Source: a virus. Taken from it: a stretch of 64,000 nucleotides of DNA. The notes under the pieces were generated by a model. The model saw only the letters and a list, made by a program, of their open reading frames with translations, did no database searches and was not told the origin of the DNA. The stretch lies in IMG/VR virus record IMGVR_UViG_3300008259_000009; one strand, 5' to 3'. Within the stretch, counting starts at the first letter, position 1; each line of letters opens with the position of its first letter. Positions 1-57,654 of this stretch are shown piece by piece. The translations under genes and the position numbers were made by a program.

Positions 1-344
1 TTAGGTTGTTGAGCACCTTGTAATGAAGTCAACGCTGTTTGAACTGCCGCCGCTGTTTTTGGTCCCCATTTACCATCAACAACTAATCCTGAATTAAATT
101 TTTCATTTAATTTAGTTTGTAATGCCTCAACTTTTGGGTTTTTAACGCCTTTTTGGATTACCGTGGGTTGTACTGTCGCACCTGATGTCGCACCTGATGT
201 CGCACCTGATGTCACTCCTGATGTTGTGGTACCTTGTTGTAAAGATGGGTCAATACCACCAGGTCCCGCCTCATTTATAAATTTTCTATGAAGATTTATA
301 ATTTGATTTTTCTCTTCTTCAGTTATAATTAATCTTTGTTTCAT
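1..344 (-). CDS. Putative peptidoglycan-binding domain protein with shared N-terminal ITEE motif (3'-truncated at window edge)
   Basis: Manually translated, not in ORF track: MKQRLIITEEEKNQIINLHRKFINE...(TSGA)n...QKGVKNPKVEALQTKLN...VDGKWGPKTAAAV; the DGxWGPxT signature is typical of PG_binding_1. Confidence 0.7.
   Translation of the reverse strand, partial: MKQRLIITEEEKNQIINLHRKFINEAGPGGIDPSLQQGTTTSGVTSGATSGATSGATVQPTVIQKGVKNPKVEALQTKLNEKFNSGLVVDGKWGPKTAAAVQTALTSLQGAQQP
175..225 (-). repeat. 12-bp tandem repeat encoding a TSGA linker
   Basis: TCGCACCTGATG x3 plus a degenerate copy on the + strand. Confidence 0.85.
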
Positions 345-355
345 AATATAATTTC

Positions 356-1048
356 TTATCCTAATTTAGCTAATATTGCGTCAATATCCGCATCGGTTAA
401 TTGTCCTGTTGGAGTTTGAACCCCTAAAGATGTTTGTATTTGTGTATTTAAATTTGCAACATCTTGAGTGAATTGTGATGAACCTCCTCCTGAGCCTGAA
501 CCTCCTCCTGAGCCTGAACCTCCTCCTGAGCCTGAACCTCCTCCTGAACCCGCATTGGCGTCTTTTACAGGGGGTTCTTGTTTTGGTGCTTTATATTGAC
601 AAACTTTAGTTAGTTGAGCCGTTAAATATCTTTCCTCATCATACCATCGTTGACTTTTGTCTTGGAATTGTACTGATGGTGTTTTTATATTCTTAACGTT
701 AGTTAAACTAAATTTACCTGTTGCACAATTATACATAACACTTGCGGTCGCCTGACCATTTATTTTTCCTGTTAAAACAAATTTGGTTCCTTTAAAAAAT
801 TTTAATTCATTGTTAGATGTACCTCCTTTAGCATTTTCTAAAGAATAACTTGCAGAACTTACAGTCCATGATTGTAGAGGAGTTATTTTTTGTTTTGGTT
901 GTGCGTTTGATTTACCATAATTAGGGTCAGATACGTTTCCACCTTCCTCATTAATAATATTTAAATACTGATTTTTAGTTCTTTCCTCATGTAATGATAA
1001 AATCCTTTTTACTTCGTCAGATTCTATATCAAATAATTTTTTTTTCAT
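356..1048 (-). CDS. Hypothetical protein, probably virion-associated, with Gly/Ser linker
   Basis: 230-aa ORF; N-terminus MKKKLFDIESDEVKRILSLHE...IINE; TATTTAT motif just upstream. Confidence 0.75.
   Translation of the reverse strand: MKKKLFDIESDEVKRILSLHEERTKNQYLNIINEEGGNVSDPNYGKSNAQPKQKITPLQSWTVSSASYSLENAKGGTSNNELKFFKGTKFVLTGKINGQATASVMYNCATGKFSLTNVKNIKTPSVQFQDKSQRWYDEERYLTAQLTKVCQYKAPKQEPPVKDANAGSGGGSGSGGGSGSGGGSGSGGGSSQFTQDVANLNTQIQTSLGVQTPTGQLTDADIDAILAKLG
480..550 (-). repeat. 18-bp tandem repeat (~4 copies) encoding GSGGGS
   Basis: GAACCTCCTCCTGAGCCT repeated on the + strand. Confidence 0.9.
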
Positions 1049-1087
1049 AAAAAATGTTTATTTATAAATATCTGAAAATAAGAAAAA

Positions 1088-1564
1088 TCACCCCTCCAAT
1101 TTATGTTTTTGATACATAACTGACATAACGTGTATAATACTATGGAGATGATATGAACATAAAATAATAATACCATAAATTTCAAGGTATAATAACCCTA
1201 ATAAAAAACCAACTAATGGTGATAAAAGGTATAAATAAGCATAAAATTTAAATCGTTTACTTTTAAATAAAGGATAAAGACAAGATAAAAAAAACATAAC
1301 GGCAACAACGTTATGTATCATTGGATATAATTTAACTGAGAAAGCGGTTACCATCACTAATAAAAAAGATGAAAACCTCCAATTGTCTATTCCAAAAAAG
1401 AAATATGCTGTCATTACATTCGCAACAATAAATAATGGTTGTAATGAAGTATTCCAATATTGTGATAATGATAAAAGTTCACCCTCAACTGACAATAACA
1501 CAAAAGGATATAGTAATGATATTAATATAACTATAATTTTTAGTATGTGTTGGGTGTAATTCAT
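1088..1564 (-). CDS. Multi-pass membrane protein
   Basis: 158 aa with several hydrophobic segments. Confidence 0.7.
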   Translation of the reverse strand: MNYTQHILKIIVILISLLYPFVLLSVEGELLSLSQYWNTSLQPLFIVANVMTAYFFFGIDNWRFSSFLLVMVTAFSVKLYPMIHNVVAVMFFLSCLYPLFKSKRFKFYAYLYLLSPLVGFLLGLLYLEIYGIIILCSYHLHSIIHVMSVMYQKHKLEG

Positions 1565-1578
1565 AAAGAGGATTTTAT

Positions 1579-2265
1579 TTATAAATAGTCTAATTTATTT
1601 GACTTGCGAATATTTTCATCACCCCACAATGGTTGCAAATTGTTTAATGACCAACATTCTATAAACTCATTGTCACCAATCTCTTGGATGTTGAATGATG
1701 AAATCGGTTTTATATGGTCAACATGCCATTCACCATAATTGTCCCAAGACATTCTTTCATCAAATTGTTTTTCCAAATGTACAATTAAATCTTCGGGTGA
1801 GTATTTTAGAATATCAAAATAATGACCGTTTTTTTTAACATTGTTTTCCTTTAAAACCTGATAAATTGCGGTTCTGAAATTGTTGATTAGTTTATAAATG
1901 GGGTCGTTCGCTTTACGGGTTTTTTCGTAATTACGTTTTATTTCACGAATTTTTTCTTTATTTTTTTCACGGTATTCTTTTATATATTCGTTCCATTTAT
2001 CTTTGTTATCTTCATACCATTGTTTATGATATGATAATCTTTTTTCTTTATTTTTATTATAATGTCTTTTATCTGAAGCACTTTTACCACCTTTATATTT
2101 TCTTCCAGATGGACCAATATTAACTTTATTTTCTTTAAGTACTCTTAAAACTATGTGTTTTTTAATATTTAATTTTTCAGAAATAGATGGACTACCTAAA
2201 TATTCTTCGTTGTAAAGTCTTAAAATTTCTTTTTCTATAATTCCATCAATAATTATTTTTTTCAT
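1579..2265 (-). CDS. Free-standing HNH-family (homing-like) endonuclease
   Basis: WHVDHIKPISSF...NNLQPLWGDENIRKSNK HNH motif; basic repetitive N-terminal region. Confidence 0.8.
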   Translation of the reverse strand: MKKIIIDGIIEKEILRLYNEEYLGSPSISEKLNIKKHIVLRVLKENKVNIGPSGRKYKGGKSASDKRHYNKNKEKRLSYHKQWYEDNKDKWNEYIKEYREKNKEKIREIKRNYEKTRKANDPIYKLINNFRTAIYQVLKENNVKKNGHYFDILKYSPEDLIVHLEKQFDERMSWDNYGEWHVDHIKPISSFNIQEIGDNEFIECWSLNNLQPLWGDENIRKSNKLDYL

Positions 2266-2309
2266 ATATTATATATATAAACATATTAACGATTATATCA
2301 ATATCAAGT

Positions 2310-56169: not shown

Positions 56170-56210
56170 AACTTCTTTTTTATTTAAATAAATATCCCTA
56201 TATTTGTGTT

Positions 56211-56603
56211 ATGAATGAAAAAGTTTTATATATCGTTAGGGGAGTACCAGGTTCAGGTAAATCAACTTTTGCAAGACAATTAACCTCAAACGTATTTGAG
56301 GCGGACCAATATTTTATTGATGAAAATGGTGAATACAAATTTGATTTTACAAAAATCAAAGACGCTCATAAAGATTGTCAAGATAATGTAAAATACGCCA
56401 TGGAATCATCTATTCCAAAAATTGCCGTGTCAAATACATTCACCCAAGAATGGGAGATGGAATATTATTTCAACATTGCTAAAGAATTTGGGTATAAAGT
56501 TTTTACAATAATTGTGGAAAATAGACACGGTGGTAAGAATGTACACAATGTTCCTGATAATATTATTGACTCAATGAAAACCCGATTTGAATTTAACCTA
56601 TGA
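56211..56603 (+). CDS. AAA_33 P-loop kinase (polynucleotide-kinase-like)
   Basis: RGVPGSGKST, EADQYF, VSNTF, HNVP. Confidence 0.85.
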   Translation: MNEKVLYIVRGVPGSGKSTFARQLTSNVFEADQYFIDENGEYKFDFTKIKDAHKDCQDNVKYAMESSIPKIAVSNTFTQEWEMEYYFNIAKEFGYKVFTIIVENRHGGKNVHNVPDNIIDSMKTRFEFNL

Positions 56604-56809
56604 AGTACTCCCCTTTACTAGCGGCATTAATCTTATTTTTTAGAATTTTTATAGTTTTAAAACTATTACTATTGTTTTTACAAACAAGTTTATATCCTGA
56701 GAAATATGATGTTTCATCATTAACTTGGTGGATTTATTTATTGATTTTTGATATTTGGGTTTTAACCCAAATACCAGCACCTGAAGAAAAATCGGATAGT
56801 GATGAATGA
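56600..56809 (+). CDS. Small membrane protein
   Basis: Two hydrophobic segments. Confidence 0.55.
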   Translation: MKYSPLLAALILFFRIFIVLKLLLLFLQTSLYPEKYDVSSLTWWIYLLIFDIWVLTQIPAPEEKSDSDE

Positions 56810-56812
56810 TTA

Positions 56813-57031
56813 TTATTTAGAGTATTTCCGAAATAAGAAATAAAGACCAAAAAATAGTCCCGATACGCAATACAAAATTAAATTTGCATAAAATAAACTC
56901 CCTGTCGTAACAATCAGATAATATTGAACTGCATCGAATCCAAATGGATTGAAGAACATTGCCAACATAAGGAACTTTATTGAAAGATTCCCCAAAAATA
57001 TTTGTCTCCACGTCTTGATTCGATTCATCAT
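56813..57031 (-). CDS. Small membrane protein
   Basis: Hydrophobic ORF; preferred over the overlapping alternative frame. Confidence 0.45.
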   Translation of the reverse strand: MMNRIKTWRQIFLGNLSIKFLMLAMFFNPFGFDAVQYYLIVTTGSLFYANLILYCVSGLFFGLYFLFRKYSK

Positions 57032-57147
57032 CGTCCATATATGTTAATTTAACATTTATGTAATAAAAAATTACGAATATTAATATAAACCAAATGTTGA
57101 GTTATTTTGATTTATATTAATATTTATCTATATAAATAACATTTAGT

Positions 57148-57654
57148 ATGAAAAAATACATAATTGACGAAAATAAACTTCGTAAAGCAATTAGACAGCA
57201 TATTCTTGAGTCAGACTCAACTCAAGAACCTAATGAAGGAAAACAAAGATGCCTTACAACTAACACAGTTAGTTTGGATGAAATTGTCGGTTTAAATGAT
57301 GGGTTTAAAAACTACACTTCAAAGTTGTATAAAAGAAGTGGTGGTATTAGAGGTATGGTAGACGCTTTGGATATTTTAAGAACCATAAGATTACACCCTG
57401 ATGTTACAGATGCTGGTGAACATTTATCTTACGATTTAATGAATCATCTTAACACATTTCGTGGTAAAAATTATTTAGATGAGACAACAGGTAATTGTCA
57501 CAGTGCCATGGATAAAGTACTTGAGCTTTATAAAGAAAATGAACACGGTGAAGAATTAGTGAAAGATATTGAAAAAGTTCTTTCTCATCCTGACCCATCG
57601 TCAAGAGCCAAAGAATATTTAAAAAGATGTTTACAGTTAGTAAAAGAAAAATAA
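57148..57654 (+). CDS. Hypothetical protein with related N-terminal motif
   Basis: MKKYIIDENKLRKAIRQHILE; TATTTAT at 57121. Confidence 0.75.
   Translation: MKKYIIDENKLRKAIRQHILESDSTQEPNEGKQRCLTTNTVSLDEIVGLNDGFKNYTSKLYKRSGGIRGMVDALDILRTIRLHPDVTDAGEHLSYDLMNHLNTFRGKNYLDETTGNCHSAMDKVLELYKENEHGEELVKDIEKVLSHPDPSSRAKEYLKRCLQLVKEK

Follow-up and report, generated by a model that had tools for sequence, protein, structure and literature searches.

In bacteriophage T4, the internal proteins IPI, IPII and IPIII and the protein Alt carry a capsid-targeting sequence (CTS), which is removed by gp21 (Mullaney and Black 1996, reviewed in PMC9026906, PMC5694885, PMC3012670). The prohead proteases of the T4 family and related ones cleave after Glu; reported sites in T4 include ITE-6 and LTE-619 in Alt, and a candidate site, LIE-9, lies in gp21 itself (PMC5694885, PMC9026906). 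In the phiKZ-like giant phages (phiKZ, 201phi2-1, SPN3US), the propeptides of ejection or inner-body proteins are cut by S80 proteases at (A/S)-x-E (PMC5694885, PMC10052503). Here we describe a set of N-terminal leaders encoded in a stretch of viral DNA of 64,000 nucleotides, taken from the record IMGVR_UViG_3300008259_000009 (hereafter the window; G+C 27-40%). The leaders are carried by 11 of the approximately 80 genes of the window. Judging from their sequences, we consider it probable that they are capsid-targeting propeptides like the T4 CTS, unrelated to it in sequence and belonging to a far larger system.

The window comes from an uncultured T4-like jumbo phage with a genome of about 300 kb. 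No DNA-level match to catalogued phages was found when 20 kb of the window was compared with a phage collection by megablast. The nearest capsid proteins, those of an uncultured 484-kb phage and of Flavobacterium phage immuto, were 40-44% identical. Synteny with the window was found in a complete IMG/VR genome of 321 kb (G002), which has terminal repeats; the identities are 79% in the major capsid protein (MCP), 84% in the portal protein and 80% in the terminase. From this synteny we took the window to be part of a jumbo phage genome of that approximate size, about 300 kb, and G002 was used as the whole-genome stand-in for it. Many genes are preceded by the box TAnnTTTG, which we take to be the −7 promoter box of Bacteroidota, so the host probably belongs to Bacteroidota.

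An earlier note on this DNA had listed eleven N-termini as near-identical or looser starts of otherwise unrelated proteins. All eleven were found in their places and the quoted residues were confirmed. The bodies behind them are indeed unrelated, with a best pairwise BLASTP E value of 0.19. The single shared motif that had been proposed could not be maintained, and we found three related leader classes instead. Class 1 is a 22-residue LTESDL leader with the consensus MKKVIRLTESDLxRIVKRVI(N/K/S)E. In class 2, a tail ending in Y-L-x-E or similar comes after the core ITEEEKxRILG(L/M)(H/Y), and class 3 is short, with the start MK(I/Y)IITESQ (ITESQ or ITEEQ). When the profiles of the classes were iterated they merged, which implied a common plan of a hydrophobic stretch, Thr/Ser-Glu and an amphipathic helix. 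A strict class-1 hidden Markov model (HMM) gave 35.5-58.6 bits for three leaders, compared with 4.9 bits for the best of the other 1,545 among 1,548 six-frame segments. With HMMs iterated on relatives, the leaders of the genes starting at 49624, 1048, 47711, 50481, 30667 and 344 all had E<0.01. The weak leaders at 49624, 51448 and 57148 could be settled because their orthologues or homologues carry the same leader type. A scan of the window and G002 with the leader HMMs, which the earlier note had suggested, gave almost exclusively N-terminal matches. There were 28 N-terminal and two internal matches in 445 proteins (117,816 residues), and one of the two internal matches is probably due to a mis-called start.

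Three genes of the window have a clear class-1 leader, and all are on the minus strand. They are 17195-17632 (145 amino acids (aa); leader residues 1-22, ending in VINE; HMM 58.6 bits), 35352-35684 (110 aa; VINE at residue 22; 55.9 bits), which lies in a transfer RNA (tRNA) array, and 25921-26310 (129 aa; IIKE at residue 22; 35.5 bits). The orthologue of 35352-35684 in the related locus L020 is 77% identical. Two other genes have diverged leaders of this class. Gene 48455-49624 (minus strand, 389 aa; VLNE at residue 22; iterated HMM 20.9 bits) has no promoter of its own and lies directly behind 49948-50481; its homologue in locus L050 has a canonical class-1 leader that aligns with the diverged one. 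Gene 57148-57654 (plus strand, 168 aa; ILE at residue 21) has a class-1-like leader with a marginal HMM match (E 0.06), and its G002 orthologue, with a leader of 13.5 bits, retains the leader type and the Glu.

The class-2 genes are likewise on the minus strand. Gene 3-344 is cut by the end of the window (FINE at residue 25; E 8.8e-4), and the body of this truncated open reading frame (ORF) contains a peptidoglycan-binding-like domain (PG_binding_1, 21.7 bits, below the cut-off of 23). It lies directly behind 356-1048 (230 aa; IINE at residue 34; 31.0 bits, E 3.8e-9). Gene 46506-47711 (401 aa; 29.4 bits) encodes hydrophobic, Gly/Ala-rich body segments and has a weak PHROG match to a tape-measure protein (E 6e-4). 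Gene 49948-50481 (177 aa; 26.2 bits) has a class-2-like N-terminus without a canonical hydrophobic-x-E site; its G002 orthologue is 47-50% identical. The two class-3 genes are on the plus strand. The leader of 30667-31269 (200 aa; 22.3 bits) has candidate sites at ILE (residue 15) and NIE (residue 18), and its type is retained in six orthologues of related contigs, in which the similarity of the bodies starts from about residue 19-32. The class-3-like leader of 51448-52077 (209 aa) ends in IVE at residue 18 with a marginal HMM match (E 0.06); the body has hydrophobic segments, and the G002 orthologue has I-T-E|S at the same place. Neither Pfam nor PHROGs nor NCBIfam has a family for any of the ten leader proteins that are complete in the window.

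That the leaders end in (I/L/V)xE, as the earlier note had also observed, is true of ten of the eleven, in which [ILV]xE occurs at residues 15-34; it is absent from the product of the gene starting at 50481. We surveyed this site in 80 IMG/VR loci (1.42 Mb), where 230 ORFs start with a class-1 leader on 128 bodies that are unrelated at BLAST 1e-4. In these 128 proteins, residues 2-22 carry about 2.3-3.8 bits per position, except for the variable positions 13 and 21. All 128 have a hydrophobic residue at position 20 (Ile 86%, Val 9%, Leu 5%) and 98% have Glu at position 22; the residue between them varies freely (Asn, Lys, Ser), and Gln or Ser is preferred at position 23. The information drops below 0.4 bits from residue 25. 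For class 2, [ILVM]xE comes directly after the core in all of the 120 top metagenome matches, followed by Gln in 71% and then by divergence. In the related loci it was found in 28 of 34 class-2 leaders, compared with 36% of control proteins over a comparable span. Thus, two different leader classes stop at the same kind of site, hydrophobic-x-Glu, which is the kind cut by prohead proteases of the T4 family.

A protease that might cut at such a site is encoded in the window. Gene 6198-6923 (minus strand) encodes a prohead protease of the T4 gp21 type (Peptidase S77; PF03420, 80.6 bits against a cut-off of 27). It also matched the PHROG head maturation protease (6e-42) and the structure of T4 gp21 (PDB 5JBL, E 3.9e-14). 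Its His94 (LNHPESS) and Ser157/158 (SSRGVGS) are invariant in six members of the clade; we assume that the His and Ser residues are the catalytic ones, as they presumably are in T4 gp21. This protein is the presumed enzyme for the removal of the leaders. The MCP (2365-4248, minus strand, 627 aa; Pfam Gp23, 249.8 bits) belongs to the gp23 family. The sequence LINE-A that had been noticed in it was confirmed as L-I-N-E60|A61. It lies four residues before the stretch aligned to residue 21 of mature T4 gp23*, which is residue 86 of the precursor. Its I-N-E is the same tripeptide as that at the ends of class-1 leaders in the window. The corresponding position in two distant relatives, behind a common ENQ motif, reads I-V-S-E|A in immuto and L-L-K-E|A in the 484-kb phage. 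The MCP and its relatives thus have hydrophobic-x-E|A sites at the propeptide boundary, and it is very likely that the protease of this lineage keeps the cleavage preference of T4.

The match of the MCP to gp23 is split between residues 65-105 and 321-601, so that, compared with T4 gp23, about 200 residues are inserted at about residues 105-320.

The leader genes also share an upstream element. TATTTAT lies 7-45 nt upstream of nine of the eleven, as the earlier note had claimed for most of them, compared with 16 of the 70 other genes (Fisher test, P = 2.7e-4). The two leader genes without it, those starting at 344 and 49624, each come immediately after another leader gene of the same orientation. 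The longer form ATATTTATA has 13 sites against 4.5 expected, a number reached by none of 100 shuffles, and six copies are before leader genes. Copies are at 1063-1071(-), 26325-26333(-), 30655-30663(+), 50494-50502(-) and 51434-51442(+). A candidate late promoter, ATATTTAT(A), is at 17646-17654 (minus strand) before 17195-17632. Shorter TATTTAT copies before leader genes are at 35689(-), 47727(-) and 57121(+), and the element is 11 nt upstream of 35352-35684 and 22 nt upstream of 46506-47711. The TAnnTTTG box precedes none of the leader genes and nine other genes of the window. In the head module, TATTTAT is found before the protease gene, the scaffold-position gene 4286-5812 (at 29 nt) and 7683-8399 (ATATTTATA at 8414-8422). 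In G002, the element precedes the genes of the large terminase (TerL), portal, protease, scaffold and sheath and four tail-region genes, and it does not precede the DNA polymerase gene or the two ORFs after the helicase gene, which are probably a ribonucleotide reductase.

Counted over G002, TATTTAT was found upstream of 101 genes and TAnnTTTG upstream of 46, with both before only four. TATTTAT precedes 16 of its 30 leader genes (P = 0.002). Among the relatives it precedes 94 of the 128 class-1 genes, with a peak 21-25 nt before the ATG. T4 has the late promoter TATAAATA, and we infer that the TATTTAT element is its analogue, a late promoter. The two motifs are largely exclusive, and TAnnTTTG probably marks early and (A)TATTTAT late genes. 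That the leader proteins are late, as the earlier note described them, is suggested by the upstream motif that they have in common with head genes. In the intergenic regions of the window and in G002, (A)TATTTAT is preferentially separated from the ATG by either about 11-12 nt or 21-25 nt. The shorter distance suggests very short or absent 5′ leaders.

The distribution of the leaders extends far beyond the window. In a word-indexed search, the class-1 leader was found in 781 proteins of 79-254 aa, and among the matches listed no similarity remained beyond residue 22. When 1.84 billion cluster representatives were searched exhaustively with the profile, 9,226 protein clusters of public metagenomes had a class-1 leader at E<=0.001 and 925 at E<=1e-10. 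At least 250 class-1 loci were confirmed in IMG/VR. In each of five genomes that are complete or nearly so (281-322 kb), 6-17 class-1 copies were counted, and the majority of the profile matches stop at position 22. About 30 leader ORFs, of all classes, are present among the 364 genes of G002. Class 2 is as widespread as class 1, with 995 proteins at E<=1 among 8,000 candidates scored. Among the top class-1 matches, the metagenome proteins P0200, P0201, P0204, P0208 and P0212 have two full class-1 leaders: besides the N-terminal copy there is a second between two bodies, which lacks only the initial Met. These two-leader proteins look like polyprotein precursors. An S77 protease was found in 13 of 15 leader-bearing IMG/VR records, and the other two are 26% and 64% complete. 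A full-text literature search found no paper that describes the leader.

Selection acts on the leader as a peptide, as synonymous codons vary freely at conserved class-1 residues (six codons for Leu7, four for Arg18 and four for Thr8). The mean identity between leaders is 72% for nucleotides and 68% for amino acids. Leaders are also interchangeable between orthologous cargo in different phages. An ORF of locus L027 has a body 50% identical to that of 57148-57654 and a class-2-type leader in place of the class-1-like one. Comparison of the loci further indicates that leader genes come and go as cassettes. Gene 17195-17632 lies between two conserved genes that adjoin in G002, and it is absent from the syntenic site there. 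A different leader gene lies beyond the opposite end of the ClpB-like gene in G002, and the window has none there.

In an AlphaFold model of the product of 17195-17632, residues 9-26 form a detached helix (pLDDT of about 66), which is followed by a hinge at 25-27 (<50), just behind the Glu, and a beta-rich body (>90). The product of 57148-57654 was modelled with a helix at residues 8-21 and a disordered segment at 18-33; one of its five models was good. No fold relative was found for either model: Foldseek against PDB gave nothing at E<=0.001, the best hit of the VIA wide structure search had a Z score of 6.3, which is background level. A search of the ESM Atlas also gave no match. The mature class-1 cargo has a median length of 102 aa, within the size range of the T4 internal proteins, and a membrane-like segment occurs in five of the 128. 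Pfam named only one thioredoxin and marginal single matches among these 128 proteins, and PHROGs named almost none. One marginal match was to ArdA (1.4e-4). The Pfam domains seen on leader-bearing proteins are PG_binding_1, LysM, MORN, YkuD, one thioredoxin and the marginal ArdA. Wall-binding domains without a signal peptide would make sense if the proteins leave through the tail, and this does not discriminate between the possible explanations of the leaders.

We suggest the following mechanism. A leader consists of a hydrophobic beta-like stretch, a Thr/Ser-Glu helix cap, an amphipathic helix and a hydrophobic-x-Glu end. The cargo would be made late, together with the head proteins, and its leader might dock it onto the scaffolding core of the prohead. 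Cleavage after Glu by the gp21-type S77 protease, which is active only inside proheads, would then free the mature cargo in the head, from which it might enter the next host with the DNA. A protease restricted to proheads, the occurrence of its motif at the ends of the leaders and of the capsid propeptide, and the upstream element of the head genes together suggest that the leaders are propeptides of prohead proteins and hence targeting signals. The protease, the matching end motif and the shared upstream element come from the results of the programs used, and the targeting step is argued from the precedent of T4 (PMC9026906, PMC3012670). The earlier note had supposed that one modular leader loads the capsid. 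Loading is favored by the protease, the leader end, the shared promoter type, the small unrelated cargo and the leader swaps, and the idea of one leader gives way to at least three classes. It is possible, and we propose this more tentatively, that a major clade of uncultured T4-like jumbo phages of about 300 kb loads approximately 30 proteins per genome by means of at least three interchangeable cleavable labels, and that some precursors with two leaders are split by the head protease.

Several observations weigh against the interpretation of the leaders as capsid-targeting propeptides. In sequence, the leaders do not resemble the T4 CTS. A clear hydrophobic-x-E end is missing from many class-3 proteins of tandem arrays, and the leader at 50481 also lacks one. 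The TATTTAT element also precedes the ClpB-like gene, a homing endonuclease gene and the helicase gene of G002. About 30 leader genes in a genome of 364 genes would be a very large head cargo. The leader-bearing records all belong to one clade, so the co-occurrence with the protease is not independent. In the two nearest catalogued T4-like phages that encode S77, the search for leaders gave one marginal HMM match of 16.6 bits only. In addition, the T4 internal proteins are basic (PMC9026906), unlike the mature cargo, for which the median pI is 5.7.

The main rival, which we consider unlikely, is that the leader is a docking tag for some other partner, such as the ClpB-like or Hsp70 chaperone, a tail or baseplate site or a cytoplasmic assembly, with the hydrophobic-x-Glu as a part of the helix and no cleavage. 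A beta-stretch followed by an amphipathic helix with hydrophobic residues at 12, 15, 16, 19 and 20 would suit such a role, and the phage has both an Hsp70 and a ClpB-like ATPase, the gene of the latter lying behind the same upstream motif and divergent from a leader gene. The large number of tagged genes and the occurrence of housekeeping-type cargo, e.g. the thioredoxin, also agree with it. However, the helix by itself does not account for the Glu at position 22 in 98% and the Ile, Val or Leu at position 20, with position 21 free. It also does not explain why two classes have the same end, followed by Gln, Ser or Ala, or why the same tripeptide occurs at the maturation site of the capsid protein. 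Export is a less probable explanation still: we think it improbable that the leader is a non-classical signal that sends small proteins to the membrane or periplasm of infected cells. In its favor, few Pfam domains were found on leader proteins and three of them bind or act on peptidoglycan (PG_binding_1, LysM and YkuD), two of these being accompanied by MORN repeats; these wall-domain proteins have the leader at the N-terminus and no classical signal peptide. Some cargo of the window also has hydrophobic segments. However, the leader differs from Sec or Tat signals in being strongly charged (net charge of +0.14 per residue, pI of about 10) and in lacking a hydrophobic core, and its complete internal copies in two-leader proteins have no initial Met. 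The membrane-like segments in only five of 128 class-1 bodies do not fit export either, and delivery through the tail suits wall-binding cargo equally well. A Sec/Tat signal peptide itself was rejected, because the charged residues alternate, the net charge is positive and there is no hydrophobic stretch.

It is very improbable that the conserved unit acts mainly as DNA or RNA, i.e. as a promoter and start region for strong late expression or as a homology arm for cassette swaps. Leader genes do behave as cassettes, as shown by the absence of 17195-17632 from G002, and most of them have their own upstream motif. Nevertheless, the internal copies keep the peptide far from any promoter, and cassette exchange, which may well occur, leaves the selection on the peptide unexplained. 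An element at the DNA/RNA level was rejected on the free variation of synonymous codons at conserved residues. Hardly any credit can be given to an ordinary paralogous family or to a compositional coincidence. Met-Lys-Lys starts are common in a genome of 30-34% G+C, yet the bodies are unrelated, the HMM separates the leaders from other segments by 35-59 to 4.9 bits, N-terminal matches exceed internal ones by 28 to 2, and 9,226 clusters were found at E<=0.001 among 1.84 billion, which together refute paralogy and chance.

The head module of the window also contains several other genes, all on the minus strand. The probable scaffold gene 4286-5812 (508 aa) is at the gp22 position between the protease and MCP genes; its product has 18 [ILV]xE sites and no family match. 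The products of 6949-7416 and 7683-8399 are candidate core proteins at the gp68 and gp67 positions, as judged from gene order. Gene 8422-10248 encodes a gp20-type portal (Portal_T4, 256.7 bits) and 10305-12074 the large terminase (Terminase_6N, 43.3 bits). The order portal, 7683-8399, 6949-7416, protease, scaffold and MCP is the same as in the T4 head module. In the scaffold-position protein, an extremely acidic region of about 200 aa, which contains an almost perfect internal repeat, precedes a basic region rich in Lys and Gly. Residues 55-67 of the product of 7683-8399 form an internal leader-like stretch, G-L-T-E-S ... I-T-E, which reads G-L-N-E-S in G002 with the final Glu kept. A 64-aa ORF similar to ribosomal protein S21 (7492-7686, plus strand; PF01165, 27.2 bits against a cut-off of 27) lies inside the module on the opposite strand, and its G002 orthologue has the host-type TAnnTTTG box. 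In another genome, G001, a class-3 leader gene (L082:2360-3316, plus strand, 318 aa) is inside the head module, after the protease gene and a 69-aa gene.

Other neighboring genes of the window deserve mention. The product of the ClpB-like gene 17734-19779 (plus strand) is a ClpB/ClpC-like AAA+ ATPase with two rings that lacks the usual N-domain (AAA_2, 230 bits; ClpB_D2-small); the gene has the ATATTTAT element upstream and is divergent from the leader gene 17195-17632. A full-length Hsp70 is encoded at 59239-61110 (minus strand, 850 bits). Two probable homing endonuclease genes were found on the minus strand: an endonuclease-VII/HNH-like one at 1579-2265, just downstream of the capsid gene, and a GIY-YIG/NUMOD3 one at 26369-27178, which adjoins a leader gene and has its own ATATTTATA. 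The array of 23 tRNA genes at 32483-39156 (minus strand), which are all the tRNA genes of the window, has a class-1 leader gene inside. One of its members, 32756-32846, is 91 nt long and its anticodon was left undetermined by ARAGORN. An RNA ligase with an N-terminal OB-fold domain (27224-28234, minus strand; PF21189 and PF09414) is encoded near the tRNA region. Gene 24166-25323 (minus strand, 385 aa) encodes a protein with VanY (74 bits) and M23 peptidase domains, a probable cell-wall hydrolase that is either an endolysin or virion-associated. A PAS/GAF histidine kinase (62094-63983, minus strand; HATPase_c, PAS) is next to a small ORF that by eye resembles a receiver domain. The two would form a phage-borne two-component pair, and they are conserved in G002.

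If the leaders do load cargo, one short signature would identify, directly from sequence, the proteins that these abundant environmental jumbo phages inject with their DNA. The resulting set would far exceed any known repertoire of phage effectors delivered by virions. It would comprise thousands of mostly uncharacterized small proteins, among which factors for anti-defense and host takeover could be sought. The leaders would also be ready tags for packaging foreign proteins into these capsids, as has been done with the T4 CTS. Leader swaps and two-leader proteins would then model how phages convert captured genes to cargo. The T4 trick would have evolved more than once or diversified beyond recognition, and would be scalable about tenfold.

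The known systems resemble the one described here to different degrees. The phiKZ-like phages are also giant, have many head-internal proteins that are cut after Glu by a gp21-related protease, and include some paralogues with identical starts of the N-terminal propeptide. They differ in the protease family, the P3 preference and the lineage, and their propeptides are long, protein-specific and not portable. In encapsulins, a short conserved cargo-loading peptide takes diverse cargo into a shell of the HK97 fold; in contrast to the leaders, it is usually C-terminal and uncleaved and binds the shell protein, and encapsulins are bacterial nanocompartments, not virions. The Dar antirestriction proteins of phage P1 are similar in being packaged in the head, in acting in the next host and in having their incorporation tied to head morphogenesis, but they depend on ordered protein-protein interactions and have no common cleavable leader (PMC9024508, PMC12810830). 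The closest counterpart is T4. In both systems, a short N-terminal peptide with a hydrophobic-x-Glu end is carried by unrelated proteins, a gp21-family S77 protease and a head module of the gp20-gp21-gp22-gp23 type are present, and the cargo genes vary between related phages. The 26-residue class-1 leader had no tblastn match (E<=10) in 50,697 phage records, including those of T4-like Escherichia phages, and the lack of similarity to the T4 CTS implied an analogue and not a member by descent. The leaders here have 22-29 residues (15-18 in class 3) compared with ten in T4. There are at least three interchangeable classes, and approximately 30 tagged genes per genome against a handful in T4. The genes are scattered as separate cassettes, some proteins have two leaders, and the mature cargo is not basic. 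The principle is known from T4, and the leaders, for which there is no curated family, would be an unrelated, longer, multi-class and much larger version of it in uncultured jumbo phages.

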